NCBI RefSeq assembly: GCF_053078305.1
Contig: NZ_CP166879.1
DNA length: 64,000 nucleotides
Direction: 5' to 3' (one strand)
The stretch's first letter is position 1; every line of letters begins with the position of its first letter. The translations under genes were made by a program, and so were the position numbers. The notes below the pieces were generated by a model. It had not been told where the DNA came from. It saw only the letters and a program-made list of their open reading frames with translations, and made no database searches. This document shows, in pieces, positions 3,824 to 25,712 of the stretch.

Positions 3824-3912
3824 ACTGAAGATTTTCCTGATATGCAGAGATGAAAAATGGGAAAGTGGCGTGGTGAAAACACCAGGCCGGAGCAGAAGGT
3901 TATTCTGATGAT

Positions 3913-4281: not shown

Positions 4282-4443
4282 GATAAAGTCCTCACAGAAA
4301 ATCGGTTAAGAAGGGGTTAACGATGACAGGTCAGCCGGTGTGGAGACCGGCTTCGGTGAAGATGTATTCATTGATGAGAAGGGCCTCATCCACAGCGGCG
4401 TCTGAGGTCATCTGGTCGTACTCGTTTTCCGGGTGACGGAACA

Positions 4444-4665: not shown

Positions 4666-4733
4666 AATGGGATACCTCTGAAGACAGAAGATAAAAGTGA
4701 AAACAGGTGTGATGTGATTGTGGCGGTGACGGG

Positions 4734-5699: not shown

Positions 5700-5792
5700 G
5701 TGTGAAATCCTTGTAATGTGAATAAATGAGAGGAAATAAAGGCCGGGGGCTGACAACATCACGTTCATCACTGACCGTGAGACCCGGCAATA

Positions 5793-6038
5793 TCAGGGAT
5801 GAATGATATTCGGCTGAAATTCCGGACAGCCGTACGCGTAACCGTTCCGGTCACAGACGGATGGCCAGATGCCATTGCCTGTACTCAGTCTGCACAGACT
5901 GAGTTCTCCGGGACGGTAAAGCAGACGGGTACACCAGGCGCACAGGTCATCATCAGAAATGGAACGACATCCCGGCAGCGCCTCCGGGGCGTCGGGTGAT
6001 ACGGGTGCCTGAATCACGCCTTCAGGGATATGTTTCAT
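5793..6038 (-). CDS. Small DUF905-type protein (YkfF-like)
   Basis: 81-aa product from Met at 6038; its ATG overlaps the upstream stop as TGATG (6036-6040); position between DUF932 and antirestriction genes as in CP4-6/CP4-57. Confidence 0.6.
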   Translation of the reverse strand: MKHIPEGVIQAPVSPDAPEALPGCRSISDDDLCAWCTRLLYRPGELSLCRLSTGNGIWPSVCDRNGYAYGCPEFQPNIIHP

Positions 6039-6859: not shown

Positions 6860-6904
6860 AATTTGCTCCTTATCGGTGGTTAAGATTTACTGGTGTAATA
6901 AATG

Positions 6905-6936
6905 AAAAAAGCCGCGTCTCCCGGAGAAGACGCGGC
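6905..6936 (-). terminator. Rho-independent terminator
   Basis: Stem gccgcgtct/agacgcggc with 8-nt loop; on the minus strand followed by UUUUUU (plus-strand aaaaaa at 6905-6910). Confidence 0.5.
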
Positions 6937-7269
6937 CTGATGGACGAAATTAATGAGGTTTATTGTCTGAGAAGCCCTCCACTGGCGAGCCACGCATTAA
7001 GCTGTTTTCCGGCATCAGCTTCAGAGTTCCGGCAGCGTCAGCGTCGCTGACCTTCCGCGTTGCGGATAACCCGACGGAAATGCATTCCCGGGTCATCCTG
7101 GATAAACACATTGCGGTAAGCGGTTATGACAGCAACCGCCTGCCCGTATGAGAAAGATCCTTCAGCCAGGACATACTCTGTGTGTAACCCGGCATATCTG
7201 GTTTCTCCTGATAAATAGCCTCTGCCATACGTTGTGGCAGAGGCTGAAGCATGAAACTGACTTCAGGGA

Positions 7270-7725
7270 TCAGTTAACATTTTTTCCGGAAACGGTAATC
7301 AGCAGTGGATGGTAGTCCTGGGGATTGAAAACCGATAACGGCAGACTGACACGATGGCCGTTACTTTCTTCAGTTGCTTTAATGATTTCGGTTGTGGCGA
7401 CATTTTCCACGCACTCCGTTTCCAGAAATGCGTCTGTGGTTCGCGTGGCATTACTGTCACCAAAAGCTTCCGTTTCCATTTTTCTGGTCACCAGCGTCTG
7501 ACCATATTTGTCTTTGAGTTGCAGAGTGATGGTGAGGGGGCCAAATCCTTCATCGTTTCCGCCATTATCCAGCCGGAACTGGTAAGCACAAATATTTCCC
7601 GGGAGCCATATTGTATCTGTATTGCGTATACTGATGTAACGTTGATCCTGTGCCCGGAGTGGGGCAGACCACGTTAACCCCAGAATGAAGGCGGTAATCA
7701 TGCAGGTTTTGAACAGGTGAATCAT
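7270..7725 (-). CDS. Secreted/periplasmic protein of unknown function
   Basis: 151-aa ORF with N-terminal signal peptide (MITAFILGLTWSAPLRAQ); no recognisable catalytic motif. Confidence 0.55.
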   Translation of the reverse strand: MIHLFKTCMITAFILGLTWSAPLRAQDQRYISIRNTDTIWLPGNICAYQFRLDNGGNDEGFGPLTITLQLKDKYGQTLVTRKMETEAFGDSNATRTTDAFLETECVENVATTEIIKATEESNGHRVSLPLSVFNPQDYHPLLITVSGKNVN

Positions 7726-7800
7726 GGTATTTACCTCTCTGAGTCATGACGATGACACTGACAAATCAGGTGATAAAGCGTAAAAGGCGCAGAATAGCCG

Positions 7801-10323
7801 TTATGCCGGTAACTCCGGGGGTAATGCTTCTTCCAGTCGGTTAACCATATTGCCGAGATGGGATGCATCATATTCCATGACGGGGCGTTGCCTGATGATA
7901 CTGACCACCAGTGGTTTGATTAACATATTGGTCGCGGCCCGTTGTTGTATACCGGCGGCGAAAATGATCTCCAGAGCATTCTGATCGATAACACGGGCCA
8001 GATTCGCGTTCAGATTTTCAATCTCATGTCCGGTCAGCAGGAAACTGCCGGCAAGCCATGTCACCTGCTCCTGAATCATTGCCAGAATTTTGACGCGATC
8101 TTCTTCAACCAGCGCTCCGGCAATTTTTCCTGATACAGCGGAGGCAATCATTCCCCCCAGAACACCGCCAACCACACGCCCTGTCAGTGCACCAAATGGT
8201 CCCAGTGGACTGAACAATATCCCGCCCGCCACTGACCCGACAGCACCACCTGCCACACCGGAAGATGCCACGGCAAGATTCCTGATGAACTGCGCACCGG
8301 AGATCCGTCCCCGCAACATTTTGATCATGTCAGGGCCGGTTGTGACAGCTACCAGTGCCAGAGATGTCACCAGCGTACCCTTCATCACTTTGTTCAGGGC
8401 ACTGATATTTCCTGCACCGGTCCCCTTCTGAAGAGCCAGTCGGACAGTCGGGCTGGCAGTCGAAAAATCAATGTGCTTCAGCATACCCTGAACAACAGTG
8501 AGCCGGTGAAGTTGCTGGGTTGTGACGTAGACAGCCAGTGTGCGGGTGAAGGTTTTTCCTGCCTGGACAGCAGCTGTCTGCAGGGCAGCATCGCGATCGC
8601 CGGTGCTGAGCCAGAAGATCGATGCCGTCAGGGCAAAACTGATCCCTCCGGCCGCCAGACTGACAACCGACCCCTCGGCAATATCATAAGTGACCGATTC
8701 GATGGTCCCGAACCGGGTGATATTACGGGCCTGAGTATAAGTCAGATGTCCCCGACGAATCAGCCGGGACGCTTCTGCGGGATCGGTTACACCGGGTACT
8801 TTACCTTCGCGGATCTTATTCCTCATGGTTTCAACAGCGCCGGCATACTGATCACGGGGGACTTCCAGTTGCATGGGGCCATTATTTCCCATGTAACGAT
8901 ACTGTCCGTTTTGTCCGTCGAATGCCGCACCGACGCTACGGGCTGCAGTTGAACAATATTTCGTCTGGATTTCTGTTCCGCTGACCAGTCTGTCTGCTCC
9001 ATTTCTGGCATTATTATCACCGAGGATCCGTGCGTTTTTCAGACGGACTCTGTCGACAATATGGTTTCCCCGTTCAGCGGCAAACCCATGTCCCTGCCCT
9101 CCGGAAGCAAACATTTTCTCATTTGTACTCCAGGTTTCCGGCAGTTTCATGAGAATCAGACCATTCGCCGTTGCATCGGAAATAAAGCTGTTGTAAGGGC
9201 GTTCATAAATTTCCTGACACAGTGTTTCTGTTTCGCGACAAAGAGAGGAGCAGTACCATTCCGGATCCGGCTTATGATTTTCCGGGGCATGATGTACTTC
9301 TGTCAGCCCGCAGGAGGCACAGATACGAAGCTCATCCACGTGATGGAATGATACAAAACGGCGACCTTCTGAAAAGGGATACCAGTCACCGCCGTCCAGG
9401 CAACGATCGAGAAAATCGTCATTCGCTTCCGGTGATAAATTCAGGCGGTTCCGGAAGAGCGTTTTCAGTTCATCAGGTGTGAATGACAGGTTCTCTTTCA
9501 ACTGTTCGTTAAACCCTGCCATGTTTCTTTCATACCAGGCATTGTTCAGTAACCAGTTTCCGTCTGCCAGTTCAAATTCCCTCAGCTCTCCCCGGGAAAT
9601 CCGTTGAGAAATGAGCGTCAGCCAGATGCGCTCCGTCAGTGAGTCAGGAAGGCTGTAATCGTTTTGCAAACTGGTCAGCCACGATTTACTGTTGAGCACC
9701 GGTTGTTCTTCCAGTGTCTGGCTGATGGCACAGGTCAGTTTTTTCAGCGCCTGGATCTGGCTGGCCGCCCATAGCAGCGTCACTAATGCAGCCAGCCAGT
9801 ACAACAACCCGCCCCACCACATCAGTGACGGTGAAATATCGTACTGTAACGCGATCAATGGTGCGCATGCAGAACACGCCATAAGGAAAAAGGCAGTATA
9901 AAAACAGCAGTAATACCCGTTAATTTCCTTGCTGATATCTTCTGGTGTGATCCCGTTCTGCTGAATGTTTTTGATCTGCAGGGGAACAGCCAGCAGACCA
10001 CCGGCGAGAGCAGTGGTCAGAATAAATTTCACAGAGTCAAAGGTGTGAGCCTCCAGCGCGATATGTTTACCATCAAGTCCCCACATGAAGCTGATGATCA
10101 TTCCGGCAATCGTCAGAAATACGCCTGCCAGCCAGCGAATATGGAACAACCGGGTTATGCGTTCGGTGATATAGCCAGCCAGTAAGGCCGGGCCGAACAG
10201 ACACAGCAATATGAGCCCTGCCAGCGCAGAAGCCGTGCTGATTAATGCTCTGAACAAAAGGCGAAGAATGGCAAATCCTGCGATCAGCAGGATCAGCGCG
10301 CCGACTATCTGTAACATAGTCAC
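7801..10323 (-). CDS. Large inner-membrane protein, YeeR-like
   Basis: 840-aa ORF immediately downstream of flu (position of yeeR in CP4-44); multiple N-terminal TM helices, Cys/His cluster (CASCGLTEVHH…CSSLC), Gly-rich hydrophobic C-terminal segment. Confidence 0.65.
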   Translation of the reverse strand: MTMLQIVGALILLIAGFAILRLLFRALISTASALAGLILLCLFGPALLAGYITERITRLFHIRWLAGVFLTIAGMIISFMWGLDGKHIALEAHTFDSVKFILTTALAGGLLAVPLQIKNIQQNGITPEDISKEINGYYCCFYTAFFLMACSACAPLIALQYDISPSLMWWGGLLYWLAALVTLLWAASQIQALKKLTCAISQTLEEQPVLNSKSWLTSLQNDYSLPDSLTERIWLTLISQRISRGELREFELADGNWLLNNAWYERNMAGFNEQLKENLSFTPDELKTLFRNRLNLSPEANDDFLDRCLDGGDWYPFSEGRRFVSFHHVDELRICASCGLTEVHHAPENHKPDPEWYCSSLCRETETLCQEIYERPYNSFISDATANGLILMKLPETWSTNEKMFASGGQGHGFAAERGNHIVDRVRLKNARILGDNNARNGADRLVSGTEIQTKYCSTAARSVGAAFDGQNGQYRYMGNNGPMQLEVPRDQYAGAVETMRNKIREGKVPGVTDPAEASRLIRRGHLTYTQARNITRFGTIESVTYDIAEGSVVSLAAGGISFALTASIFWLSTGDRDAALQTAAVQAGKTFTRTLAVYVTTQQLHRLTVVQGMLKHIDFSTASPTVRLALQKGTGAGNISALNKVMKGTLVTSLALVAVTTGPDMIKMLRGRISGAQFIRNLAVASSGVAGGAVGSVAGGILFSPLGPFGALTGRVVGGVLGGMIASAVSGKIAGALVEEDRVKILAMIQEQVTWLAGSFLLTGHEIENLNANLARVIDQNALEIIFAAGIQQRAATNMLIKPLVVSIIRQRPVMEYDASHLGNMVNRLEEALPPELPA

Positions 10324-10393
10324 TCCGTGATGAATATCATGTTATTGTTAATGCCAGCGAATGTGGCGTTGAATATCCGTTGCGCCGGTCCGG

Positions 10394-10418
10394 GTCCCGG
10401 TCATGATGACCGGGACCA
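10394..10418. repeat. Near-perfect 25-bp palindrome between flu and the YeeR-like gene
   Basis: ggtcccggtcatgatgaccgggacc reads the same on both strands except the central base. Confidence 0.8.
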
Positions 10419-10437
10419 CAGAGAGGCGATGGTTCTG

Positions 10438-13400
10438 TCAGAAGGTCACATTCAGCGTGGCCTGACCGTTATAGCCTTCAGCGCTGCTGCCGCTGACGCT
10501 GTGGACATAACCTGCCTGAACGCCCAGGGTGATGTTTTCCCGGACACGGGCTTCCAGTCCGGCCTGCAGGTCCAGTGACGTACCATTCTGTGACGGTGAG
10601 AACGTCATGTTACTGCCGGCTGCGGCTGTACCCATGCTCATGTCCCCCCGGGAGCTGAAGGTGCGGATAACAGAAGGCTGTACCCACCAGTTCACCGGCA
10701 GTTCACGCACACTGTGTTTGGCACTGCCGCGCAGGGTGTCACGGGATGAGGTGCCTTTACCAAAGTTCATATCGTTGTGGCTGCCCAGACGGAAGCCGGC
10801 ACGCACATGTTGTGCACTGCCATGCCCGAACTTCACATAACCGGCGTTGTCCTGACCGTCATCCAGGGAGAGTCCCTGCCAGGTGTACTGCAGTTGCGGC
10901 TCCAGCATCAGATTGTCAGTGATACTGAAGGGCAGACCGGTTTCCAGTGAACCCAGCCAGCCCCGGCCCCGGACGCGGAAGTCGTTATTGTCCGATGAGG
11001 CTTTCATGCTGTGGCGGGTTCCCTGGGCCACAATGTCAGCCCACAGGCCGGAGGCGTTGTGTATCAGATTCAGGTATCCGCCCAGGCTGCCGGCATCATC
11101 CCGGACCGTGCCGGCACGGGAGCCGTCATCATCCTTAACATCAACGGAAGAATGGCCTGCAGCACCATACACCCCTGTCGTCAGAGACATACCGGCAACC
11201 TCTGTTCTCATCAGGTCACCCTCCAGACGGACGAAGCCATAGCTGCCGCTGCTTTCCGGCGTGGCCCCACGGACAATACCGCCGTTGTTATCGTGACCGA
11301 GATGGCCGCCCTGAATGCTGAGACGGACGCTGTTATTTTCACCGTTTACACCGGTCTGATGGCTGCGGGAGCCTGCCAGAATCCGGTCATAGTCCATTGC
11401 CTGTGTCAGCATGGAGGCATACAGGGGGACTTCTGCACGATAAGCATTTTCACTGCGCAGATACCAGCTCTCATCACTGTCCCGGTTGAGGGAGTAGTTA
11501 AAGGCCCCGGCCTGCAGCCTGTTCCCCTGGACAAAGGCCCCTTCCTCCGTGGTGGCACCGTTAATGGCTTCCACCACCTGAATACCCTTACCGCTGGTCG
11601 CCAGCCCCGACGCACTGTTGCCGGCGTTCACCATGTTCAGGATGGTTTTTCCGGTTGCCCTGCCGCCGTCAATGACCAGTCTGTCAGCATTGTTCTGTGC
11701 CATATCCGGGCGTACACGCAGGCTGATGGTGCCATTCTGCCCGTTCAGGTTTTTCACTTTCAGGGTTGCCGGTACGAACTTCCCTGTGCGGGTGGAGGTG
11801 AAATGAATCTGTCCGGCATGGCTGAGGTCATCCACCACCGACTGCACCGTGGCGTTATCAGGGATATTCCAGGTGGCACCGGAGGCGAGAGTGACATTCG
11901 TGGGGTCAATGGCACCGTTCAGCACAGTGCTGCCGGTCAGCTTCAGGGCTGTACCGCGCTGAGCAATGACATCCGTGGTGACGGTACTGTCGTTCAGCGT
12001 CAGCGTGCCTTCATTCAGGTTGACGGCTTTCTGGGTGAGTGTGGTGTTGCTGACAGTGAGTGTGCCACTTCCTGATTTTTCCACGCTGCCGTTACCGGTG
12101 AGAGAGCCTCCCTGCAGGAGTGCATCGCCTTCACGGATGGTCAGGGTATCGTTGTTCACCGTCTTCCCGGAAAGGGTAAGTATGGCGCCGTTATTCAGCG
12201 TGGTGGTGCCCGCCAGTGTGCCGCCCCTGGCGGTGAACAGTCCGCCATTTACCGTGGTATCCGTGGCCGTATCACCGGCGTTCAGCGTGAATGAACTGCC
12301 TTTTTCCAGCATCAGGGCATCCGCCTGACCGCCTCCGATACTGAATGCCTTTCCGTCGCTCCGTGTACCACTGACAGCGGCACCGGAATCGGCCAGCAGT
12401 ACACCGCCATTTCCCATGGATACGGTGGTGGCGGTACCACCGTTGCGGACATCCAGCGTTCCGCCATCATCCACACGGGTATTAGTGGCTGTGTGTCCGC
12501 TCAGCACATCCAGACGTCCGCCATTTTCCAGTACGACATTATCAGCTTTACCCTCCACAACAGAGAATGCTCCCAGGCGGTTTGTACCGGTAACGGTTGC
12601 AGCCGTACTGGTAACCAGTGCACCGCCCGTGTTCTGGGTGACATCAGACGCTTTACCGCCGGCATTCACCTGCAGCTTTCCTTTCTGGTTGATGGTGGTA
12701 TGCGCGGCAGTTCCTCCTTCCTTAATCACCTGCCAGCCATCACGGTTTATCAGCGTCTCTGTTGCCGTGCCACCGTTGTGTACATACTGGTTACCCCCCT
12801 CCAGCCGGGTGTTATGTGCCTCTCCGTGTACCGTCTGGTCACCACCGGCGTAAATGAGGGTGTCCCGTGCCATCCCCGAAGACCAGATAACCTGCCGGCC
12901 ATTTTTGTTGATGGTGGTGGATTCAGCCGTCCCTCCGACCATCTGACCGCTGGACACATTTTCAGACTCCGGACCACCTTCTGCACCGGTGTTGACGATG
13001 GTTCCGGTTGCCAGTCCGCCATGTTTTATGGTCTGGTAACCATCCAGGTTAATAATTGTACCGGCAGCTTTCCCTCCCCCGTGTACCCACTGCTCACCTC
13101 TGTTATCCAGCGTGGTGTTCACCGCCAGTCCGTTAAGGCTCTGCCCTCCGCCATCACGAATAACCGTATCACTGGCAGTTCCTCCTGCCTGCACAATCTG
13201 ACGACCATTTGCGGTGACAGTGGTGTTTCTGCCTGTGCCACCCGCGTTTATCCATTGCCCGCCGGTGTTTTCGTCACTGTCCGGCCCCAGCTCAAGCCCG
13301 GTACTGACAGTCACGCCATCAGCTGTTCCGGATACAAACTGGTTGTCATGGTTTACCAGTGTTCCGCCATTCACTGTTTCACCCGGGTGCACAACGATGT

Positions 13401-13566
13401 CAGCAGCCAGCACCGGGAGTGACGTGACCGCGGCAAGAGACAGTGCAACCGCCACACCGCCACGTTTACCCCGTGCGCGGGCCAGTTCGGAGGCAACCAC
13501 GAAAGCGCCCGTAATGTGATTCCATACCAGCCTGTAGCAGGTATTCAGATGTCGTTTCATCAGCAT
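10438..13566 (-). CDS. flu: Antigen 43 (Ag43) self-associating autotransporter adhesin
   Basis: 1042-aa product matching remembered Ag43 along its length: extended signal peptide MKRHLNTCYRLVWNH…, passenger repeats, C-terminal beta-barrel ending …GYNGQATLNVTF. True start probably Met at 13560. Confidence 0.95.
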   Translation of the reverse strand: MLMKRHLNTCYRLVWNHITGAFVVASELARARGKRGGVAVALSLAAVTSLPVLAADIVVHPGETVNGGTLVNHDNQFVSGTADGVTVSTGLELGPDSDENTGGQWINAGGTGRNTTVTANGRQIVQAGGTASDTVIRDGGGQSLNGLAVNTTLDNRGEQWVHGGGKAAGTIINLDGYQTIKHGGLATGTIVNTGAEGGPESENVSSGQMVGGTAESTTINKNGRQVIWSSGMARDTLIYAGGDQTVHGEAHNTRLEGGNQYVHNGGTATETLINRDGWQVIKEGGTAAHTTINQKGKLQVNAGGKASDVTQNTGGALVTSTAATVTGTNRLGAFSVVEGKADNVVLENGGRLDVLSGHTATNTRVDDGGTLDVRNGGTATTVSMGNGGVLLADSGAAVSGTRSDGKAFSIGGGQADALMLEKGSSFTLNAGDTATDTTVNGGLFTARGGTLAGTTTLNNGAILTLSGKTVNNDTLTIREGDALLQGGSLTGNGSVEKSGSGTLTVSNTTLTQKAVNLNEGTLTLNDSTVTTDVIAQRGTALKLTGSTVLNGAIDPTNVTLASGATWNIPDNATVQSVVDDLSHAGQIHFTSTRTGKFVPATLKVKNLNGQNGTISLRVRPDMAQNNADRLVIDGGRATGKTILNMVNAGNSASGLATSGKGIQVVEAINGATTEEGAFVQGNRLQAGAFNYSLNRDSDESWYLRSENAYRAEVPLYASMLTQAMDYDRILAGSRSHQTGVNGENNSVRLSIQGGHLGHDNNGGIVRGATPESSGSYGFVRLEGDLMRTEVAGMSLTTGVYGAAGHSSVDVKDDDGSRAGTVRDDAGSLGGYLNLIHNASGLWADIVAQGTRHSMKASSDNNDFRVRGRGWLGSLETGLPFSITDNLMLEPQLQYTWQGLSLDDGQDNAGYVKFGHGSAQHVRAGFRLGSHNDMNFGKGTSSRDTLRGSAKHSVRELPVNWWVQPSVIRTFSSRGDMSMGTAAAGSNMTFSPSQNGTSLDLQAGLEARVRENITLGVQAGYVHSVSGSSAEGYNGQATLNVTF

Positions 13567-13751
13567 TTCCTTAATCAGAGTGAGAGTGAATAAAAAAGCC
13601 GGTATCCACAGATGTGGATACCGGCAGGTAAAGGGTTACAGTGCCAGAGGTCCGGCTGACGGAAGTTTCTGACGTGTGGCTCTGTTGTTCCCTGAATGTC
13701 TTTCTGTACGTATCTGTGCATGTTACTGACAAAGGTTATTATTAGCTTATC

Positions 13752-13787
13752 GATCGATATAAACGATCGATAAAATAGGTATCGATC
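13752..13787 (-). promoter_or_regulatory. agn43 phase-variation switch: three GATC Dam sites in the OxyR operator region
   Basis: GATC at 13752, 13765 and 13784 within tatcGATCgatataaacGATCgataaaataggtatcGATCg, ~190-220 bp upstream of the flu start codon. Confidence 0.8.
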
Positions 13788-13892
13788 GTTTTATTCTATT
13801 GTTTGGCTATTGCACGGACAAGAGAGACAGTAACGAAAACAGCGCTTTTGTGAGCAGACTCAGAGTCAGGGAGGGCATCAGTCACGACAGGT

Positions 13893-14765
13893 TCAGAAGA
13901 AAATCCAGTTCCATACCGCACGGGCAACAGAGACCACCGTGTTACGAACAGCGCGCAGGGCCGTACGGACAACAGAGGCAACACAGACGCTCTCCGCTGT
14001 GTCAAATATCCGGTCCACCGCACCGGTAAACTGTTCACGGGCCTGAGACCGGACAGATTCCGTGCGCAGCTCGTCCTGCAGTCGGGTCATCAGGGGACTG
14101 GCGGCATGGTCGGGAAGCGCTGTCATGAGCGCACTGACCAGCGTATCCAGTTCCCAGCCGGTGCGGGCCGATACGGCCACAACCGGATGTACGGGCCGGA
14201 ACAGACGGAATACCGCCTCCGTTTTTTCGCGAATATTCTGTGCCTGTGCAGGAGAAGGCTGAATACCGGCCATATCCCATTCATGGCAGGGCTCCGTTTT
14301 GTCGGCCTGCGTCACCACAAACAGCACCTGCTGATGTCCCCGGTGCAGGATGTGTCGCCAGAAATACTCATCCACAGACAGGGCCCGGTCATCGGCTTTA
14401 ATCAGCCACAGCACCAGGTCAAGTTCAGGCAGAATGTCACGGTACAGGGCCTCATACTCTGCATCCCTGTCCCGGCTCTCGCCCACCCCGGGCAGGTCAG
14501 TGATAACCATGCTGTGACCGTGGCCACTCAGACGGAAGCGCCGTACTTCCCGGGTGCCGGCGTGAACATCACTGACCGGGGTGACCTCCCCCTGAAACAG
14601 TGCATTACAGAGTGAGGATTTACCGGCCCCGCTTTTACCCATAATGCCAATCACGGGTTCGTGACGGGTGAGTTTGCGCAGATGTTCCAGGATGTGACGG
14701 GAAAGTGAGTAAGGCAGGGAGGAGAGCGGTTTTTCAATTGCCTCAATGGCATCAGACGGATTCAT
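13893..14765 (-). CDS. yeeP: YeeP/YkfA/YfjP-family GTPase
   Basis: P-loop GIMGKSGAGKSSL plus G-motifs (DLPGVG, TQADK); ~290 aa from Met at 14765 (ORF extends to 14804); upstream of flu as in CP4-44. Confidence 0.8.
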   Translation of the reverse strand: MNPSDAIEAIEKPLSSLPYSLSRHILEHLRKLTRHEPVIGIMGKSGAGKSSLCNALFQGEVTPVSDVHAGTREVRRFRLSGHGHSMVITDLPGVGESRDRDAEYEALYRDILPELDLVLWLIKADDRALSVDEYFWRHILHRGHQQVLFVVTQADKTEPCHEWDMAGIQPSPAQAQNIREKTEAVFRLFRPVHPVVAVSARTGWELDTLVSALMTALPDHAASPLMTRLQDELRTESVRSQAREQFTGAVDRIFDTAESVCVASVVRTALRAVRNTVVSVARAVWNWIFF

Positions 14766-15208
14766 ACATGTATTCCCGGTGAAAAAAGACAAAACCCCGC
14801 GCACCGGAAAGGTGGCGGGGGATCCACGGAGATAATATCTGTCTGAAATTGTTTTGAATCGATGGGATTGTTGCGTATTAACATGAAGGAGATCAGGACT
14901 TATCCGTTACTGGGTGATCTCCTTCCATGAAAATACGCAGTTATTGTTAAACAGCAGGCTGATTTCTCCGTAAAGGGGAAAATATTTATCGGCTGCATGA
15001 TTATCAGGTGTGTCTGTGTTTACTGCTGTGAGTATTTTTCAGTGTATTGTGGGGGAGATGTCAGTGGGAGATATTAAATTTACGTTTATAATTATCTTAC
15101 TTCTTCTGTGTGTTTTTTATAAGAGTGCACACGTAATGATATCTGTTGATACCATGTGGTTAAGTGTTTCCCTTCCGGGTCATGCGTACTTGCAAAATGG
15201 CATCTGAA

Positions 15209-15238: not shown

Positions 15239-16106
15239 ATAGAGAGGAATACGCACGTAATGATTAAATGCTTTTGTTACACCATTCTTCCGGCATGAAT
15301 ATTTATCCAGTTCCCTTTTTTATTTGTGTAGTGATACTGTCGGAATAGCGTTCAGTAATGTGAAGCGTCCTGTTAAAAATCTTTAATAAATGTGTCACCC
15401 TGGTCAGGAAATATCTGCTGAGATATTATTAGTTGGTGGTGTTTTTACTGAGTAATAGCTGGCTTTTAATTCCTGAACTGAAATACTGTCGCTCGTCAGG
15501 GTTTAATTAAAACTGGATGATGATGTGAAAATGAAGGCTGGTTTTTGTGTTTGTCGAGGAAGTGTTGTTTTTATCCATTCTCATCATTGGCTGGCTGCGA
15601 TTATACAGAAGTATTTGAAGAAAAAATGGTGCATTTTATCTGTGCCGGCAGGGAGGGGGATTTTCCTGATATGTCAGTATTAAATGGTTTTTGTTATTTA
15701 TAAAAATGTCATCCTGTCCATAGAATATTGTACTGAGTACTCAGCATTCAGCGCAGGAACTGTCATCTTCTTTATTTTATTCTTCTTCAGGAGGGCAGTT
15801 TTCTGAAAGCGTTACTCCGGGGAAACTGTTTATGTTTATTCCCGGCAGGAAACCCGTACCTGCAATACCCTGGATGATGCTTTTTGCTGGTACGTTGTTG
15901 TGTGAAAATTAATCAACATGTGTGCTCCGGAGAGCGCCCGTAGACGCACAGATTCATTCTGACATTCTTTAGCGACAAAATATCGATTGGTTATTATTTA
16001 ACCTGAAAATCGACAGAAATTTTTATCCTGTATTGATTCTGATGCTATTTTTGCTATTAGTAGCAATAGTTGCGGTACTTTATGTTCTGTGTGTTGTAAG
16101 GTCATT

Positions 16107-17597
16107 ATGCCATACTTTCAGTATCCTGATGAGTTTCCCCTGAGCTCGCTGCCTCCACTCATTCGTGATGCCGTTATTGAAGCTCAGCAAATCACGCAGG
16201 CTCCCCTGGGGCTTGTGGCAGCATCTGCCCTGGGCGCTGTTTCACTTGTCTGCCAGAATCTGATTGATGTCTGCAGACTGAATACACTGCGGGGGCCGGT
16301 TTCTCTTTTCTTACTGACGCTTGCTGAGTCCGGAGAACGAAAAACCGCAGTGGACAAATTATTAATGGAGCCCCTGTACCAGCAGGAGATGCTGTTATAT
16401 TCCAGACACAAAAATGAACTGACGACATGGAAAAATAAGGAAGAGCTTTTAAAGGCGCAGAAAAAAGCATTGTTGTCAAAACTGAATAAAGAACTCCGCA
16501 AAGGCGCGGATGAGTCAGAAACGCTCAGACAACTGGAAGCGCTTCAGAAAAACAGAGGGGAAAAACCTGTAAGATATAAATTCATTTTTAATGATGCCAC
16601 GACAGCAGCAATTAAAGATCAGCTTTGTGGTCAGTGGCGTTCAGTGGGTATCATGTCTGATGAAGCCGGTATAATATTTGATGGGTATACCCTGTCTGAG
16701 CTGCCTTTTATTAACAAAATGTGGGATGGCTCCGTATTGTCGGTGGACAGAAAGAATGAACCCGAACAGATGATTGAAAATGCCAGAATGACATTATCTC
16801 TCATGGTACAACCCGGTCTTTTTGACCGATATATGGAGCGAAAAGGTTCTGTTGCCAGGGACAGTGGTTTTCTTGCCCGTTGTCTAATCAGTAAACCTGC
16901 CACCACGCAGGGGAAACGCTTTATTAACGGAGCAGTGACCCCGGGAGAATCATTAACGGCATTTCATGAACGATTAATGGAACTGGCCAGAGGCAGTATT
17001 GAAAAATCCAGTAAGGATGAACGTTATTGTCTGCATTTTTCTCCAGAAGCGCAAAAAATATTTATTGATCACTATAATGTTCTGGAGCAGGATTTGTCTC
17101 CTTCCGGACCCTTAAGCCAGTTTCGGGGGCATGTTTCAAAAAAAACAGAAAACATTGCGAGAATTGCTGCGTTATTGCAGTATTTCAGTCAGGGTGAAGG
17201 GAAAATCTCTGCCGATATCATGACGTCTGCTGTCGTAATAAGTTCGTGGTACACAGATGAATATAAAAAATTATTTGCGTTACCTGATGAATCTGAACTG
17301 CAGCTGCAGGACGCCCGGGAGCTGCTCGACTGGCTCATTGAGGAGTGCCGCGGAGAATGCCCGCCCCGTGTCAGGAAAAATTATATTCTCCAGTGTGGCC
17401 CGGGCCGGTTCAGGAACAGGAAAAAGCTGAACGTCCTGCTGAACATTCTTGCATCTCAACTCAGGCTCTCTGTCGTGCAGGAAGGAAAAACCACCTATGT
17501 CCTGCTTTCCGAAATAAACAATATCACGCTGCCTGAACTGAATGCGTGCTACAGCCAGAAACTGATAAGATGGCATGAGCAATCCTTTGGCTTATAA
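16107..17597 (+). CDS. DUF3987 protein (YfjI-like; related to P4 alpha primase C-terminal region)
   Basis: ~496-aa ORF with AAGGT RBS before ATG 16107; family assignment from memory of island-borne YfjI-like proteins. Confidence 0.55.
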   Translation: MPYFQYPDEFPLSSLPPLIRDAVIEAQQITQAPLGLVAASALGAVSLVCQNLIDVCRLNTLRGPVSLFLLTLAESGERKTAVDKLLMEPLYQQEMLLYSRHKNELTTWKNKEELLKAQKKALLSKLNKELRKGADESETLRQLEALQKNRGEKPVRYKFIFNDATTAAIKDQLCGQWRSVGIMSDEAGIIFDGYTLSELPFINKMWDGSVLSVDRKNEPEQMIENARMTLSLMVQPGLFDRYMERKGSVARDSGFLARCLISKPATTQGKRFINGAVTPGESLTAFHERLMELARGSIEKSSKDERYCLHFSPEAQKIFIDHYNVLEQDLSPSGPLSQFRGHVSKKTENIARIAALLQYFSQGEGKISADIMTSAVVISSWYTDEYKKLFALPDESELQLQDARELLDWLIEECRGECPPRVRKNYILQCGPGRFRNRKKLNVLLNILASQLRLSVVQEGKTTYVLLSEINNITLPELNACYSQKLIRWHEQSFGL

Positions 17598-17718: not shown

Positions 17719-18420
17719 TCAACAGGCGTATAACAGGTACTCGTCAATCATCAGTTCCAGCTCGCGCTTTTCCCGTTTGCGCGCCACAGCCCAGTTTTCA
17801 AGCTCTGCATGTGATTTATGCTTTAACTCTTCAGTCCAGGGCTGCATGGAGTGGGCACACATCAGATCATACCAGCACAGCCATATCAGCGTGTGGTAGA
17901 GATCACGATCGTCGAAACGCCGGAGCAGGCTGTTCAGCCTGTTTGCCAGCCGGTTTTCACCCAGACGATGTGGCTCACTGAGTAAAACGCCGCCCAGATT
18001 AAAATGTGTAAGCAGCATGATTTCATGGGTCTGAATGCTGGTCATTAACCCTTCCTGAATGGCAGGAATGAACGGTGGTGTTCCCGGGTTGACGACCTGA
18101 TAGAGTCCCTGTGGTGCCACTGAGATGATAGTGCCTTTTTCCGGCAGAAAAAAGTGTGCCAGGGTCAGACGGTGATAACCATGAAGATGCGGAGACCCCA
18201 TTCCATGAGCGACGATAAGCCTCGTTCTGATGCTGGATGAGCAGCAGCTCACACCGGTTTTCAAGTTTTTGCATAATATTCTCTCCTTTAGCGCGCAGCA
18301 AAATGCCTCCGGGGGCCGGATCATGCCTTTGCTGCGGTGGAACGGATAACGGTCAGGAATTACGGACGGGACTGTGCAATACGCGCCTGCAGCCAGGCTT
18401 CCACTTCGCTTTTCAGCCAT
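17719..18420 (-). CDS. Hypothetical protein, probably frameshifted or with a later start
   Basis: Long ORF overlaps alpA by 60 nt; a GGAGAG-ATG start at 18265-18267 opens a different frame (ORF 18023..18301) that runs only 92 codons before stopping, with the long frame offset from it by one base. Confidence 0.3.
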   Translation of the reverse strand: MAEKRSGSLAAGAYCTVPSVIPDRYPFHRSKGMIRPPEAFCCALKERILCKNLKTGVSCCSSSIRTRLIVAHGMGSPHLHGYHRLTLAHFFLPEKGTIISVAPQGLYQVVNPGTPPFIPAIQEGLMTSIQTHEIMLLTHFNLGGVLLSEPHRLGENRLANRLNSLLRRFDDRDLYHTLIWLCWYDLMCAHSMQPWTEELKHKSHAELENWAVARKREKRELELMIDEYLLYAC

Positions 18421-18566
18421 CGGGAGCTACGGCCCAGTTTGATGGGGGCAGGAAAGGCACCATCCTTGATGAGCTTGTAAAACCATTTATCGGTCAGGCC
18501 GGTCAGCTGAGTGATAAACGACATGTCGACCATCTGGTCATCCATCAGTGAAACTGGGGTATTCAT
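18360..18566 (-). CDS. alpA: AlpA-family phage/island transcriptional regulator
   Basis: 68-aa product from Met at 18566 with GGAGG RBS; AlpA-type HTH (…LTGLTDKWFYKLIKDGAFPAPIKLGRSSRWLKSEVEAWL). Confidence 0.75.
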   Translation of the reverse strand: MNTPVSLMDDQMVDMSFITQLTGLTDKWFYKLIKDGAFPAPIKLGRSSRWLKSEVEAWLQARIAQSRP

Positions 18567-18951
18567 GAAAATGTTCCTCCGGATGTTGTTAATCTCAACC
18601 AGCGTTGGTGATGAAAACAACGCACCACCTTCCCCGGCATAACAACCGGGGAAAAACGTAAAAAATGAGTAGGGGAATATTCCTGCCAGGAGAGAAACTG
18701 TTGTGTACAGGCAATACAGGTTGTCTGTTTTGTCAGTGAAGCCGGTATAAACGGAAGATGATTTTGTGTTGCCGGAATATGGGATGGCGTTTTGCCGTGA
18801 CGGGATCAGTATTTTCAGTGATGATTATTACTGCACAGGGGAGTATCGGAGATAAACCACGCCCTGTACCTGCCAGAGCGGTGGTTTGTATTTACTGAAC
18901 GGAAGATAAAGCAGAGGTAAACACTGTCGCGGTGAAGGTAGAAGGCTGAAA

Positions 18952-19743
18952 TTATTCTCTGTAATTACAAACAACAGTGATCTTATCCGGTTTTTTTACC
19001 GTTACGGGTTTCAGAGGGTCAATTTTATATACAGGGGTAATGAGCACGCCGGAATTTATGGAAAAAAGAGGGACCCAGCAATAAACGTCCGGATATTTCT
19101 GTGTCTCCGGAATACCTTTTGCGCCAGAGACCATCAGATCTGTAACGCTCACAAAAAATGACTGCCGCAAATCAAAAAAGTACTCGTTATATATCACATC
19201 CTTTGCCAGCAGGATGACGGCATTACCAACAGCCGCTTTTACAGGTATTTTATCAGATGGATTATCGTGATTGTATATTGTTCTTTCGATATAAATAAAA
19301 CAGGCATATTTCGTCTTCTCCCCGGATAGCTGCATCTGGTATTCGCAAATGTCTTTGATACACCGACTTTCAACCCTTCCAATCATCTTATCCCGGCGAT
19401 AGTGTCTTTTATGTTTCAGCGCGTACAGAACACCATTTGAACTGTCAAACTCCAGGATTCTTCTGGTGAAAAGTTTGTTTTCCCAGATTTCCAGACAATA
19501 CTTCTCTGCACTGACGACATTGCGTTTGCGAGGAAGATCCCGTTGATACACTCCATTTAATAAGCGTGACTGCAGTTCGCCTGCAAGTTGATAATAACAG
19601 TTAATATCGTTAAGGACAGGTGCTGTGGCGCTGAGTAATGCGTTGATTACCTTAGAGCGCGAAAGTTTGTGGGTATGACAGTACTCATCCACAATTCGCA
19701 GCGTCTCATCACTGGTCATATTGAAAGTTATACGTGTTGTCAT
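18952..19743 (-). CDS. Hypothetical protein with N-terminal ribbon-helix-helix-like region
   Basis: 263-aa ORF in visibly AT-rich DNA; N-terminus TRITFNMTSDETLRIVDEYCHTHKLSRSKVINALL has the strand-helix-helix pattern of CopG/Arc-type RHH domains; remaining ~215 aa unassigned. Confidence 0.5.
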   Translation of the reverse strand: MTTRITFNMTSDETLRIVDEYCHTHKLSRSKVINALLSATAPVLNDINCYYQLAGELQSRLLNGVYQRDLPRKRNVVSAEKYCLEIWENKLFTRRILEFDSSNGVLYALKHKRHYRRDKMIGRVESRCIKDICEYQMQLSGEKTKYACFIYIERTIYNHDNPSDKIPVKAAVGNAVILLAKDVIYNEYFFDLRQSFFVSVTDLMVSGAKGIPETQKYPDVYCWVPLFSINSGVLITPVYKIDPLKPVTVKKPDKITVVCNYRE

Positions 19744-20069
19744 GATGATGTTTTCTGTTAATCATACGGGTTGATATGCATAACATTTCATAAAAAATAC
19801 TTTTAATTCATATAATTGATTTTTTGACTGGTTTTATCCTCGTGTGGTGGAAAGCAGTATTACTGCCACTGTAGCCAGCATAAATCTATCACACAGAACC
19901 ACCGAAAATGAAGCATTGCTCAGGGGAACACTCATACGAGTTCTCTGAACTGTGATAACCAGTATTTTTCGTTTTGGATGATTTGTTTATCGTTACAGCT
20001 ACAGGTAGTTCATGTACCATTAAAAAATAATTAAGGTTAATTAGTATTATTTATAGAAGTATGTTTATG

Positions 20070-20900
20070 TAACTCTACCTTGTAAATGAACTCTGTCATT
20101 GTACCTTGTAATTCTATCCTGTAATTCTACCTCGTAAATACACCTTGTAACCAGGTCCTGCAGAAGTCTGTCTCATAGAAGTATCTGTGCAGCGATATTC
20201 TCTGTAGTACTTGTAACACTGTCCTTAACCCTCTCTGCTGCAATGTAATCCCGTAACACCTGAATATAAATCTGTAATGTACACACTGACTGTAACGTAC
20301 TTTGTTAAGTAATGCCTGTTGTGTGGAGACTATTCTGGGTCCGCCATTGCTTTTGTGCGTTTGTGTAAGTGTTTTTGGCTAAATAAGAGTATGACTTCGC
20401 CAGTGTTGATACAGTGGATAACGGTGATTAAGGAATTACTGTTAATGATCTGTTCCTGCAGCTTACCTGATGAGTTTTGGTAGTAATACGTAAAAGAGTA
20501 TGCCTTATACCATTAAAAACAGCCTTACGGCGTGTTGTTTAACCCTGTACCTCTGTTACTCATGTAGTACGTTACGGAAAACTACGTTAATTGTCATATC
20601 GGGTTATGGCGTTATGCCTTCAGTATTAAAAACATTTTTTACCGGAGAAACAGGGAAGTGGAAAGGCTTTCGGGATAACGTCAGGCCATTCTGACGGTAT
20701 TACGTTAATCACAGTACAGGATAACGGGAGGGTAATGGAATTTTAAACCAGAGTAGTTCCGCTGTTGTTCACTGGAAAAAGTGATTGCCCACACGCGTTA
20801 TAAACGCCTTCCCGCTTCAGTCTGGTTACCAGAGCTTCAGGCGTTATATGCGCTGTAACGGGCTGTTACGTATGCTGTTCTCTGTCTGCTTCTGATACCC
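20070..20900. repeat. Dense array of short GTAAC/GTTAC-core repeats (iteron-like) in AT-rich intergenic region
   Basis: At least 20 copies of yCTTGTAAy, CTGTAATG, CTGTAACG, CGTTACGG, ACGTTAAT, GGATAACG, GCTGTTACG in both orientations between divergent genes 18952-19743(-) and 20996-21595(+). Confidence 0.6.
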
Positions 20901-20995
20901 GTGGACGTCGTTACCGGAGGTCACCCTGCCTGATAACGTTTTCTTCAAATTTACGGCAACGCGTCTTCCTGTGTTACAGAACACGAGGAAGAAAC

Positions 20996-21595
20996 ATGAA
21001 GACTTACAACGCCAATCCCGGTTACGAAATGGATCCCCAGCTCCTGACACACTTTAATCAGCATCTGGATTCATTATTCGGGGTCTATTCGAAGCTGTTA
21101 CCGTTCAGAATGGATTTTGCTTACCGAAAAAACACATTCAGCTACGGATGCGCCTGCAGGTACGCCATGTGCGCGGAGATGCTGCAACTGATTAACGAGG
21201 TGGGAGAGAAACTGGTCGGGTATGCCTGGGTGATGGAATATACAGAACGTAAAGGGCTTCACATTCATTTTGTGGGCTATCTGAACGGTCAGATCCACAG
21301 GAGTTCGTATCTGGTATCCAGATTGATGGGAGATATCTGGAGGCGGGTTACCGGGGGGGATGGTTACTACCACTGGTGCCGGTTTAATAAAAATTATCCG
21401 GTAAACATTAATCACGTCATTCACTATTCAGACCACAAAGCGGTGAATGCTTTACGCTATGCCATTAGCTACCTTGCCAAACGAGAACAGAAAGAATGTG
21501 GCATCGTTCTTGGTTGCAGCAGGCTTCCTGAAAAAAGTCACCGGGGGCGACCGCGACTGGACAGCACCCTGCCGGGGATATGTTCTCAGGTATAA
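20996..21595 (+). CDS. HUH-motif protein (candidate inovirus-Gp2 / YagK-YfjJ family)
   Basis: 199-aa ORF with GAGGAAG RBS; candidate HUH motif (GLHIHFVGY) and Tyr motif (RYAISYLAKRE) resembling rolling-circle Rep/relaxase motifs II and III. Confidence 0.5.
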   Translation: MKTYNANPGYEMDPQLLTHFNQHLDSLFGVYSKLLPFRMDFAYRKNTFSYGCACRYAMCAEMLQLINEVGEKLVGYAWVMEYTERKGLHIHFVGYLNGQIHRSSYLVSRLMGDIWRRVTGGDGYYHWCRFNKNYPVNINHVIHYSDHKAVNALRYAISYLAKREQKECGIVLGCSRLPEKSHRGRPRLDSTLPGICSQV

Positions 21596-23253: not shown

Positions 23254-23820
23254 ATGTATACAGAATCAAACGTTAAGCTTTCCTGTAACGCCCTCTGGCA
23301 AAAGTGTGTCCTTGCAACTCTGTATCGGGCTGCAGCCACACATCCTGAAATTAAATTATTACAATTTAAATTAATACCTTGCCCTGGTATTAATAAGGCC
23401 ATTCCCTCTCTGATGGCTGATTTTACTGGTGAACTGCATAGACTCATTTCTGAATATTTGCAGTGCAAGCGACGTAAAGATAAATCTGTTGAGCCCACCC
23501 CTTTATATTATCTCTGGAGTAGGGAGGCTGTGGCTAACGGTACCACTCCTTATCTTATGGTGCTGCTACTTAATAATGATGTCTGGTGTAAGAGTCGTGA
23601 GGTGGTGGTTCTCAGAAATCTGATTGAGCAGGCGTGGGGAAAAGTATTGGGTGAAGATAACTCCATTACACATCTGGTTGTGTATCCTGAAGTGCTGTCG
23701 TTGGTATTTGATGCAGCTAACACATACAACGCTGAGCCTGGTGTACTGGAACAGACAGCCCGGGCTTACATTGAATCGCATGGTGCTGTTGAACGTTATC
23801 TTGGGTGTAGTGACTTTTAA
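23254..23820 (+). CDS. Hypothetical protein
   Basis: 188-aa ORF with AAGGTGA RBS 8 nt upstream of ATG; no motif recognised. Confidence 0.45.
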   Translation: MYTESNVKLSCNALWQKCVLATLYRAAATHPEIKLLQFKLIPCPGINKAIPSLMADFTGELHRLISEYLQCKRRKDKSVEPTPLYYLWSREAVANGTTPYLMVLLLNNDVWCKSREVVVLRNLIEQAWGKVLGEDNSITHLVVYPEVLSLVFDAANTYNAEPGVLEQTARAYIESHGAVERYLGCSDF

Positions 23821-24267
23821 CGTCAGGTGACGCATTGTCACTTCTGACCTGCTACCTGTACGCCGGAATATAATGGTCAGAGAGGCATATTTCGACGCCC
23901 CTAATCTGGGGCGTTTGATTCTGGATGTCTGGAACAATCCGGGCTTTGTGTCACCGGGCGCATCAAAGCAGTACCACCCGGGATGTGGCGCTGGATCGTC
24001 ATTTACCGGACTGCGAAGACATACTTAAAGAGGTGATATGGGCGTTCAGTGATTTTGTCCGCGATAATCGTGGTGTGTATGATCCGGAAGCCCGTTACCC
24101 CGCCGGTAATACCTGGTATCCCGTAACAGGCCAGTTCTGAAAGCACAGCTCAGCAGATTCCCCGCATTCGCACAATCTTCATAAATCTCACAGAGGACAT
24201 TCTGACCATGTTGACTACAACAAGCCACGACAGCGTATTTCTGCGTGCCGATAATTCCCTGATTGAC

Positions 24268-24516
24268 ATGAACTATATCACCAGTTTCACCGGTATGACC
24301 GACAGAGGGTTTTATAAGCTGATCAGTGAAGATTCATCAAGCCGGGCCGATCCAGCCGCAGGTATAAAAGCGAAGTGTCACAGTAGATACAGTAACGAAT
24401 CGAAGAATCACGGGGGCAGAAGTATGAAACGTGTTGTGATACCGGTACGCTGGCAATGTTCAACGTGTCAGCGCTGGTATTGTGGCGCTGTTCCCTGGTG
24501 CTGGTCCCCCCCGTGA
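24268..24516 (+). pseudogene. alpA-like gene remnant
   Basis: Only the first ~22 codons (MNYITSFTGMTDRGFYKLISED) resemble AlpA (compare MSFITQLTGLTDKWFYKLIKDG at 18360-18566); the rest of the ORF is unrelated. Confidence 0.5.
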
Positions 24517-25712
24517 ATCTTCCTGCGTCCCCTCCGGTCAGCCGGCACTTTGTCATCCTGACTGATTCATCATTCCTTTCATATTGCCAGTCACAGCTGC
24601 TTGCATCGAACCGTACTTGTGTTGATGCGTCTGCACCGACTTAACCAAATTCAACAGAGATAAAATAGTGCAAATCACCGAAGCCTTACTTTCAGAGCCG
24701 GGGGAAATCCGGCGTTTTGTTCAGCAGGCGGTGGATCACTGGCCGCATCTGCTGGCAATCCACTTCACACTTCATTCGACCAGAGTAAATATTGATGATT
24801 ACTAGATTCGTGTATTTTATCAGGCATTTTACTTGCGAATAAATCCCCTTGTTATCCAGCGAAACCACACCGGTAGCTATTACCATATGTCGTAATACAC
24901 TAGTTACAGGAAAAACATGCAGGTTCCGCAATACGTTGTGTGTTGCTGCTTAGTCAGGATCTTTTCTTCCATGCGAGATACGACAACACTTTTGAGGAAG
25001 GATGTTCGTAACTGGTAGAGTTACTACAACAGGCATGGGAGGCTCCGGCTCTGACAGACATTGTACTGTGGAATGTTGTTACAGGTTGGGGCGGCAACCG
25101 TGCCAGGAGACTATGAGCCGTTCACGGCATTAAAGGCCACACTTCAGTCGTTTACATTCCCTGTGGTGGCAGGCATCTTCCGTTAAGGCGTCAGAGCGTT
25201 ACCAACGTTATGTTGTCATGGCTCACCTTTCATAGTCGATGCTTATCTGGTGACTGAAACTAGCCGCAGATAAAGAGTGTGAAGTTGATACCATGGAGTG
25301 GAGTGACGTGCAGGCAGGAGATTCGCTCTATGCAGGGTTGTGAGATGAATTCAAACCGGCTGTCAGCGCCAGTGATATTTGAAGATTCGTCCGGTTGTTA
25401 TCCAGTGTGCATTAAAAACCCAGACATTATGGACAATACAACGGCTTCCATAACAGGGAGGAGCCTGTTTATTATCCGGGCGTAATGACTCACCTTTGTG
25501 GGCTTTTTCCCGTCGCGCTTTTAACGTTGAAGGCATTTTCTGCCTGCCGATTCAGGACAGCGACAAAAGCCATATCAGACTATTGGTCAATGATGACCAG
25601 CGTCTGGAGTAGATGATAAGCCAAATTGATAAGCTGGAATATGTGATGAAAGTGCAACGTAATCAGTCCAATCCGACGATGTTTAACAAGAGTACGGTGT
25701 TTTTTCAGTAAG

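Follow-up and report, generated by a model that had tools for sequence, protein, structure and literature searches.

A Rep-class HUH protein predicted in the core of an Escherichia coli integrase/AlpA island, and the lineage-specific repeat array upstream of its gene

Introduction

Genes of the YagK/YfjJ type are found in the core of integrase/AlpA islands across many Gammaproteobacteria. In Escherichia coli K-12 they lie within the gene orders intF-yagN-ykgV-yagM-yagL-yagK of CP4-6 and intA-yfjH-alpA-yfjI-yfjJ of CP4-57. Islands of this kind, without capsid or conjugation genes, raise the question of how their DNA is copied or handed over after excision. The subject of the present analysis is a segment of such an island, positions 18952 to 21595 of a 64,000-nucleotide (nt) stretch of contig NZ_CP166879.1 (assembly GCF_053078305.1), which contains a gene for a 199-amino-acid (aa) HUH-type protein, a divergent yagM-family gene and, between them, an array of short repeats with the core TGTAA. 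The whole stretch is referred to as the window, and all coordinates are those of the window.

The closest described relatives of the 199-aa protein are YagK and YfjJ of K-12 and the families PF11726 (formerly DUF3296/Inovirus_Gp2) and PF23343, which have in common with it the signature WxxEY...HxH...Y-x-x-K. The signature takes the form HYH and DYLTK in YagK and HYH in YfjJ, and the K-12 genes occupy a like island context, near int, alpA and yfjI. The resemblance in sequence is limited to about 24% identity over only 113 residues for YagK and, for YfjJ, to one match of 18 residues about the HUH motif; the aligned C-terminus of YagK shows no counterpart of the C-terminal GRGRPR AT-hook of the 199-aa subfamily. 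In tmRNA islands of Pseudomonas that are moved by a jumbo phage, a Gp2-like gene, alpA and intY have been described as likely core functions, with no mechanism assigned (10.1101/2024.08.29.610337).

The segment is explained best, with moderate confidence, as the central divergent control region and two core genes of a P4-integrase/AlpA-type island (the CP4-6, CP4-44 and CP4-57 kind), in which the 199-aa protein would act as a nickase on the excised DNA and the array would be a lineage-specific regulatory element. An earlier reading made from the letters and open reading frames (ORFs) alone, here called the sequence-only reading, had proposed an origin or mobilisation module at this place. Its observations were confirmed in part and its interpretation is partly supported.

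Results and Discussion

The 199-aa protein as a Rep-class HUH protein

Both ORFs on which the sequence-only reading was built were recovered in the ORF listing:

18952 to 19743, minus strand: yagM-family gene of 263 aa (PF27701/UCP007319), named "YagM family protein" by PGAP
20996 to 21595, plus strand: HUH (Rep-class) endonuclease-like gene of 199 aa, with H89-I-H91 encoded at 21260-21268 and Y159 at 21470-21472, together with K162 and E81

The strings GLHIHFVGY and RYAISYLAK, from which an HUH motif and a catalytic tyrosine had been suspected, are present in the 199-aa protein. In 30 diverse relatives (25-62% identity to the query) the following residues are invariant: R38, D40, G75, E81, H89, H91, W115, Y159, K162, G184 and R187. 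The two histidines and the glutamate of the putative metal site are thus conserved throughout, and from the two candidate tyrosines of RYAISYLAK Y159 is invariant across the family, whereas Y155 is variable. A lack of conservation of these motifs, which would have spoken against the sequence-only reading, was not observed. The family displays a signature in the Rep order: (i) a beta-strand RxD; (ii) a Glu on the next strand; (iii) HxH; (iv) a Y-x-x-K helix; (v) a GRGRPR tail, whose AT-hook-like RGRPR is encoded at 21542-21556.

The AlphaFold2 (AF2) model of the protein (pLDDT 82) has the order beta-alpha-beta-beta-alpha-beta-alpha, with H89-I-H91 in the predicted strand 87-97 and Y159 in the predicted helix 147-161. 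The folds nearest to it in Foldseek are SIRV1 Rep (ORF119), parvovirus NS1 and AAV Rep, and in BFVD the Inovirus Gp2 (E 4e-8), parvovirus NS1 and microvirus Rep. Profile searches led to REP_ORF2-G2P and YagK_YfjJ_C; among the 30 relatives, PF23343 is matched at E<=1e-3 by 22 and PF11726 by 15. Because the active-site residues are invariant in these relatives and the predicted fold best matches the nuclease domains of viral HUH Reps, the HUH and tyrosine assignment holds, and the protein is with high confidence a Rep-class HUH protein, in which catalysis is predicted from the conserved residues. Comparison of the E. coli copies gives a dN/dS of 0.11-0.30, a sign of purifying selection, and the gene itself is intact. 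A profile search of 1.8 billion representative proteins returned 2203 relatives at E<1e-3.

The HUH assignment is sound, yet it was already implicit in Pfam and NCBI names. PGAP gives orthologs the name "inovirus-type Gp2" or "YagK/YfjJ domain-containing", and one relative is labelled "rolling circle replication-associated protein" in UniRef. The statement that the family has no assigned function is accordingly correct for experiments on the island proteins, none of which was found, and incorrect for annotation, in which Pfam, NCBI and UniRef have long carried the labels inovirus Gp2 or rolling-circle Rep-like. "Inovirus Gp2" is a name and not a habitat, since a homolog of the 199-aa protein could be detected in none of the genuine inoviruses of the phage collection. 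Searching PDB sequences with the profiles of HUH and YagM gave nothing meaningful, no NCBIfam family was matched by the HUH, zinc-ribbon or YfjI-like proteins, and the sole match in PHROGs was phrog_7120 (function unknown).

A second YagK/YfjJ paralogue is encoded at 23254-23820 (188 aa, 29% identity to K-12 YagK). It has YLM in place of the HxH motif and is probably a catalytically dead copy, as judged from this substitution. A fragment at 24668-24805 resembles the N-terminus of a further member of the family.

The divergent YagM-family partner

The 263-aa protein shows 25% identity to K-12 YagM (E 6e-16), PF27701 is matched by all YagM homologs examined, and the dN/dS of the gene is 0.23-0.35. 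Homologs with 52-57% identity are present in Citrobacter, Pectobacterium and Salmonella diarizonae, in each case divergent to an HUH gene of 192-193 aa. Since the pairing recurs in these three genera, the divergent YagM/HUH pair constitutes a conserved module. Behind the yagM homolog of Pectobacterium and Salmonella come genes for a GTPase, DUF932, antirestriction, RadC and CbeA/CbtA proteins; the same backbone sits further left in the window, on the minus strand.

The RHH-like N-terminus that had been ascribed to the protein is only weakly supported. The RHH family NF053762 recurrently matches the first ~35 residues (E 2e-4 to 2e-3, below the cut-off, in four of five homologs), and fainter matches lead to BrnA, BfmA and YbfE. 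On the other side, Pfam gives no RHH match in the 263-aa protein or its homologs, and the AF2 model, with helices at 12-25 and 29-62, is too poor for a fold search (pLDDT 52).

The proposed control region between the two genes

The 1252 bp between the genes (19744-20995) are AT-rich, as had been noticed (39.9% GC versus 48.3% in the whole window). They do not form a plain intergenic spacer, for they hold a conserved promoter-like block and a pseudogene. The elements of this region, apart from the repeats, are the following:

19756 to 19784, strand not assigned: conserved yagM-proximal blocks, TGTTAATCAT at 19756-19765 and TGCATAAC at 19777-19784, a candidate core promoter or operator of yagM
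20031 to 20050, plus strand: promoter-like block TTAAGGTTAATTAGTATTAT, with a -10-like TATTAT at 20045-20050
about 20735 to 20825, plus strand: hha/ymoA-family pseudogene, with a stop at codon 4 (ATG GAA TTT TAA) and about 200 bp of deletions
20964 to 20992, plus strand: hairpin whose 3' arm is the Shine-Dalgarno (SD) tract GAGGAAG of the HUH gene (-14.5 kcal/mol, z -2.9)

The pattern TT[TAC][AG]GGT-N5-9-T[AG]WWAT, which was chosen post hoc, occurs on the HUH strand in 8 of 17 loci and on the other strand in none, at a shuffle mean of 0.15. The distance from the block to the HUH start codon is 185-228 bp in five loci, 513 bp in Serratia, 586 bp in E. albertii and 965 bp here; in the loci L017, L019 and L020 the block precedes the HUH ATG by ~210-230 bp. 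An identical block is located downstream of yfjI in E. albertii, and the copy of locus L007 is at 7418-7437. The block at 20031-20050 is proposed as the rightward promoter of the (hha)-HUH operon, and across genera it could serve as an operon promoter or as a binding site for AlpA-type regulators. The yagM-proximal blocks TGTTAATCAT and TGCATAAC are found at the matching position by the yagM start in the Citrobacter, Pectobacterium and Salmonella loci, which makes a promoter or operator of yagM conceivable here.

The hairpin at 20964-20992 pairs the SD tract with an upstream anti-SD. Equivalent SD hairpins with unrelated stem sequences are present in 10 of 14 homologous loci (among them L008, L009, L011, L012, L017, L019, L020 and L032), seven of these with z <= -2.1; the two yfjI-linked loci are among those without one. 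The hairpins point to a control, at the level of translation, over a nickase that could be harmful. In the fold-back inhibition of the IS10 and IS50 transposases the ribosome-binding site (RBS) is sequestered in read-through transcripts. The HUH gene likewise has an SD-bearing 3' hairpin arm just upstream of the gene for a putative DNA-breaking enzyme, the structure being conserved and the sequence not. A selective inhibition of read-through at the HUH gene, as in IS10/IS50, is conjecture.

The hha pseudogene was recognised by tblastn as a remnant at 20757-20822 (E 7e-5). Its counterpart is intact in E. coli TK3889 (70 aa) and annotated with 49 aa in JCH767, and in homologous loci of complete E. 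coli genomes the annotation places an Hha/YmoA-family gene directly before the 199-aa gene. An Hha paralogue carried by the island and preceding the nickase gene may tie the module to silencing by H-NS/Hha. The possibility of a hidden protein-coding gene in 19744-20735 was rejected, as no related genome has a PGAP annotation there and the ORFs reach only 43-64 aa. The Rfam scan of 15-26 kb matched no RNA family, no terminator was found within the leader upstream of the 199-aa gene, and the scan of the window for tRNA genes gave none.

The TGTAA array and a second repeat family

The repeats of the region fall into the following groups:

20068 to 20158, plus strand: tandem array of 7 units of 13 bp, consensus TGTAATTCTACCT, detected by repeat finding and TRF
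20210 to 20370, plus strand: dispersed TGTAA(C/T) copies at 20212, 20244, 20253, 20273, 20291 and 20364, partly variable between strains
20416 to 20939, plus strand: second repeat family of direct repeats, GGATAACG at 20416, 20673 and 20719 and TGATAACG at about 20932, with TTAC(C)GG sites also present

The sequence-only reading had counted more than 20 repeats with the core GTAAC or GTTAC. The enrichment is real and the number is too high: 13 exact copies lie in 19744-20995, compared with 4.8±2.1 in dinucleotide shuffles, of which 4 in 2000 reach 13, and their density here is the maximum of the window, about five times the average. Only the 4-mer core GTAA/TTAC exceeds 20 (31 versus 18.6±3.7; 4 of 2000 shuffles reach 31). 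One counted site, GGTTACC at 20825, falls on a deletion junction of the hha pseudogene. The description of a single motif in both orientations is inaccurate, because the two halves of the region differ in (i) orientation, with GTAA:TTAC at 13:2 in the left half and 4:12 in the right half (Fisher p 0.001); (ii) flanks, which read TTAC(C)GG at right-half sites; (iii) enriched words, the most enriched in the right half being GATAACG (four copies versus 0.04 expected). The leader thus contains at least two motif families. The word GGATAACG has six copies in the window, three of them in 20416-20939, and only some copies of the GGATAACG/TGATAACG family are kept between strains.

The 13-bp tandem array is a single occurrence within the window and begins 18 bp past the -10-like TATTAT of the promoter-like block. 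If 20031-20050 is read as a promoter, the array would stand at the very start of the expanded leader, an operator-like placement. Within the units the core TGTAA matches the consensus at 33 of 35 positions (94%), the spacer at 37 of 56 (66%; p 0.002). The size of the array varies among E. coli strains from 6 to 9 units, with four copies of CTGTAATT replacing the 13-bp units in one strain, and an array is present in all eight strains in which its limits could be set. Most likely, on the grounds of core conservation and position, the array is a set of lineage-specific protein-binding sites just downstream of the rightward promoter, and not a universal origin. Readings of TGTAA as a TyrR box (the repeats are direct, not palindromic) or as LexA, GntR or other LacI-type operators (misfit of spacing or consensus) were discarded by inspection.

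Two other explanations of the array bear on the same data. It could be a neutral, slippage-prone minisatellite in AT-rich acquired DNA silenced by H-NS/Hha, with the promoter-like and iteron-like features as by-products, which seems rather doubtful. The range of 6 to 9 copies and the 8-bp sub-repeat variant agree with slippage, as do the confinement to one lineage and the variable, indel-rich segment directly right of the array, and six overlapping minus-strand promoter-like matches stem simply from the repeat unit. Such drift fits poorly with the unequal conservation of core and spacers, with units that are not recent identical copies, and with the retention of the array in eight of eight delimitable strains, about 700 E. 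coli genomes carrying at least 80% of the region.

The second explanation makes the array the operator of YagM, which as an RHH repressor, like the Stl, omega and CopG regulators, would shut the rightward HUH operon until induction. Omega and ParR are examples of RHH proteins that bind short repeats, direct or inverted, in arrays; here the divergent pairing is conserved, the YagM N-terminus recurrently, if weakly, matches an RHH family, and the array is just downstream of the promoter-like block. This account is nevertheless unlikely. The RHH assignment is sub-threshold, with no Pfam match and a poor AF2 model; orthologs with a nearly identical predicted beta-strand (RITFN/RITFS) adjoin spacers without a TGTAA array; and the conserved blocks at 19756-19784 are the better operator candidates.

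Origin and transfer readings

The sequence-only reading interpreted the repeats as the iterated binding sites of a rolling-circle origin. The TGTAA/GTAAC array would then consist of the iterons of an origin or oriT, and the HUH protein would bind it, nick nearby and replicate or mobilise the island. The idea draws on the analogy of parvovirus and CRESS-type Reps, which recognise short tandem repeats by the nick site. The fold of the 199-aa protein resembles AAV Rep and parvovirus NS1, binders of such repeats; geminivirus iterons likewise lie between the rep promoter and the gene, and Rep proteins often autoregulate via origin repeats. The array itself has more than three regularly spaced direct repeats (seven units at 13-bp spacing) with a conserved core, and the HUH protein carries its AT-hook tail beside AT-rich DNA.

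An iteron origin is all the same unlikely. A nearby nick site and a co-occurrence of array and initiator were looked for, and neither was found. The array is missing in the loci L007-L012, L017, L019 and L020 and, named by host, in E. albertii and in the sister YagM/HUH modules described below; other HUH loci have only lineage-specific repeats of two or three copies, those in two copies being at chance level, and the Citrobacter spacer has three copies of TCGTGATA instead. The number and even the length of the units differ among E. coli strains, and no significant hairpin in or beside the array and no family-wide candidate nick sequence accompany it. A possible hairpin to the right of the array (CTGCAGA...TCTGTGCAG), in which TK3889 seems to have one compensatory change, was rejected because its folding is not significant, and inverted repeats of RAYT or IS200 type flanking the HUH gene amounted to short, chance-level pairs. 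The loss of CP4-57 circles after excision (PMC3105296) points the same way. Because the array is lineage-specific, labelling it an origin in annotation would require evidence.

A further possibility is that the HUH protein is a Rep-like relaxase or the DNA-processing partner of a recombinase, acting in conjugative mobilisation or site-specific rearrangement and not in replication. Rep-like relaxases (MOBT) exist. Small Acinetobacter plasmids (L022, A. lwoffii pALWEK1.14, 4.76 kb; L023), which have a Rep_3 initiator of their own, carry a homolog beside a serine recombinase, as yagK adjoins the small serine recombinase gene yagL in K-12 CP4-6. Furthermore, 79 of 108 plasmids with homologs are typed as mobilizable, and an 827-aa relative on a metagenomic contig (L031, 1197-3680) has its HUH domain fused to a HerA/FtsK/TrwB-like ATPase, which hints at nicking coupled to DNA translocation. 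The order HUH-then-Tyr is however that of Reps and differs from the one canonical in relaxases, an inverted repeat resembling an oriT was looked for without success, and the mobilisation typing of those plasmids rests on other genes; a relaxase or recombinase partner is accordingly considered possible at low probability.

Several findings weigh against the favoured reading of the segment as a control region with a nickase gene and a regulatory array. At the level of the protein, the Pfam matches of the 199-aa query alone are weak (REP_ORF2-G2P PF23343, E 2.4e-4; YagK_YfjJ_C PF11726, E 4.6e-4), Foldseek against the PDB gives nothing below E 1e-3, with unrelated ferredoxin-like folds interspersed among the matches, and no paper in the literature searched gives YagK/YfjJ-type island proteins a tested function. 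At the level of the DNA, the direction and activity of the block 20031-20050 are deduced from its resemblance to a promoter. The array is missing from sister lineages and could be neutral, slippage-prone DNA: the YagM/HUH modules of Citrobacter, Pectobacterium and Salmonella have no TGTAA array in a spacer of only 370-400 bp. Folding of the array and its flanks gave z values of +0.3, +0.8 and +1.35, with no hairpin resembling a nick site, and within 350 bp upstream of 12 homologs no shared word rises above shuffles save the promoter-like block. As regards replication, the Acinetobacter plasmids carry the separate Rep_3 initiator, and the homolog is evidently not the vegetative replicase of the plasmid. 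When AlpA induces the excision of CP4-57, an island with yfjI and yfjJ, the resulting cells have neither the prophage nor circles (PMC3105296), which argues against stable autonomous replication.

Proposed course of events

The reading as a divergent control region with a nickase that acts after excision would work as follows. Leftward runs the yagM-family gene, which in related islands heads the backbone operon from the GTPase to DUF932, antirestriction, RadC and CbeA/CbtA. Rightward transcription would start at the block 20031-20050 and proceed through a leader of ~940 nt and the RBS-occluding hairpin into the 199-aa gene and the two zinc-ribbon genes behind it. In this E. coli lineage the leader would have been expanded by the TGTAA array and by the hha paralogue, now a pseudogene here. 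The array would be an operator or Rep-binding element that throttles the rightward operon, bound by the HUH/AT-hook protein or by YagM. After excision driven by AlpA and the integrase, the HUH protein, with E81, H89 and H91 as putative metal ligands, Y159 in the YxxK helix as nucleophile and the C-terminal AT-hook, would bind the AT-rich island DNA, nick one strand and become joined to its 5' end via Y159. From the nick the circular island would be copied transiently in the rolling-circle mode, or handed off as a single strand, for transfer mediated by a helper.

A bolder version holds that the divergent YagM/HUH unit is an unrecognised replication-or-transfer switch of the enterobacterial CP4-type islands. 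The AT-hook nickase would be produced solely upon opening of the promoter and the SD hairpin, for example through AlpA or a helper; it would nick the excised circle and so bring about rolling-circle amplification or the export of a single strand, with the array as its Rep-binding element in this E. coli lineage. This is quite improbable; if true, it would turn the CP4-type "cryptic prophages" into active rolling-circle satellites or mobilisable elements.

Distribution and island context

The locus is present in 831 of 5426 complete E. coli genomes. Profile scans detected three loci in viral contigs and, with a narrow alignment, seven in genome contigs. Across Enterobacterales the HUH gene is a neighbour of AlpA, of an integrase or of both. 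Among the loci examined, 13 have AlpA directly beside it (L008-L012, L013-L019, L032, L034), and the order HUH-AlpA is found in Trabulsiella, Budvicia, Serratia, Enterobacter and Pseudocitrobacter, followed by two zinc-ribbon genes in all of these except Serratia. Longer metagenomic relatives (~360 aa), whose C-terminal half contains the domain, are neighbours of AlpA and an integrase, and a 200-aa relative is located between an integrase and AlpA.

In the window the module is accompanied by the following genes:

18360 to 18620, minus strand: alpA-family gene (island excision/transcription regulator), an intact copy matching TIGR01764
21971 to 22782, plus strand: two zinc-ribbon genes (DUF7828/Zn_ribbon_11) according to annotation, syntenic partners downstream of the HUH gene

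A second alpA-like sequence at 24250-24413 is frameshifted and spread over two reading frames. Positions 1-15000 are occupied by a CP4-44-like backbone on the minus strand, with CbtA/CbeA-like, RadC/JAB, antirestriction and DUF932 genes and with genes for a YeeP-like GTPase and an autotransporter of the Ag43 type. Between this backbone and alpA/yagM a YfjI/DUF3987 gene is inserted at 16089-17597 (plus strand). The island is a mosaic.

In this family purifying selection has kept the HUH active site of the Rep class intact, and to this are added a tie to AlpA and a position behind a promoter-like block and an SD hairpin. The picture of an "iteron array" is corrected to that of a real, lineage-specific array. 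Y159, H89/H91 and the DNA 20031-20370 are defined as concrete targets, through which the post-excision biology of these common islands becomes experimentally approachable.

Comparison with known systems

The phage satellites (PICI/SaPI with stl-str, pri-rep and ori iterons) and P4 (alpha, ori/crr) likewise possess an integrase, AlpA and a DUF3987/YfjI-type protein, and have in common with the island a divergent control region and direct repeats near the core genes. In contrast to PICI/SaPI and P4, the candidate initiator is here an HUH protein and not a primase-helicase, and the repeats are not beside yfjI. Unlike phage satellites, the island has no capsid or packaging genes that could be seen, and matches in viral contigs are rare (the three loci mentioned above).

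With omega of pSM19035, CopG and ParR, YagM shares a small N-terminal beta-alpha-alpha-like segment, represented by the weak RHH matches, and short repeats in the adjacent control region. It differs from them in its length of 263 aa with a large uncharacterised C-terminal domain, and its RHH membership is putative. The closest structural likeness of the module is that of the 199-aa protein to AAV Rep, MVM/B19 NS1, SIRV1 ORF119 and the Reps of CRESS-DNA viruses, which show the same order of Glu, HxH and Tyr-helix and are its best structural matches.

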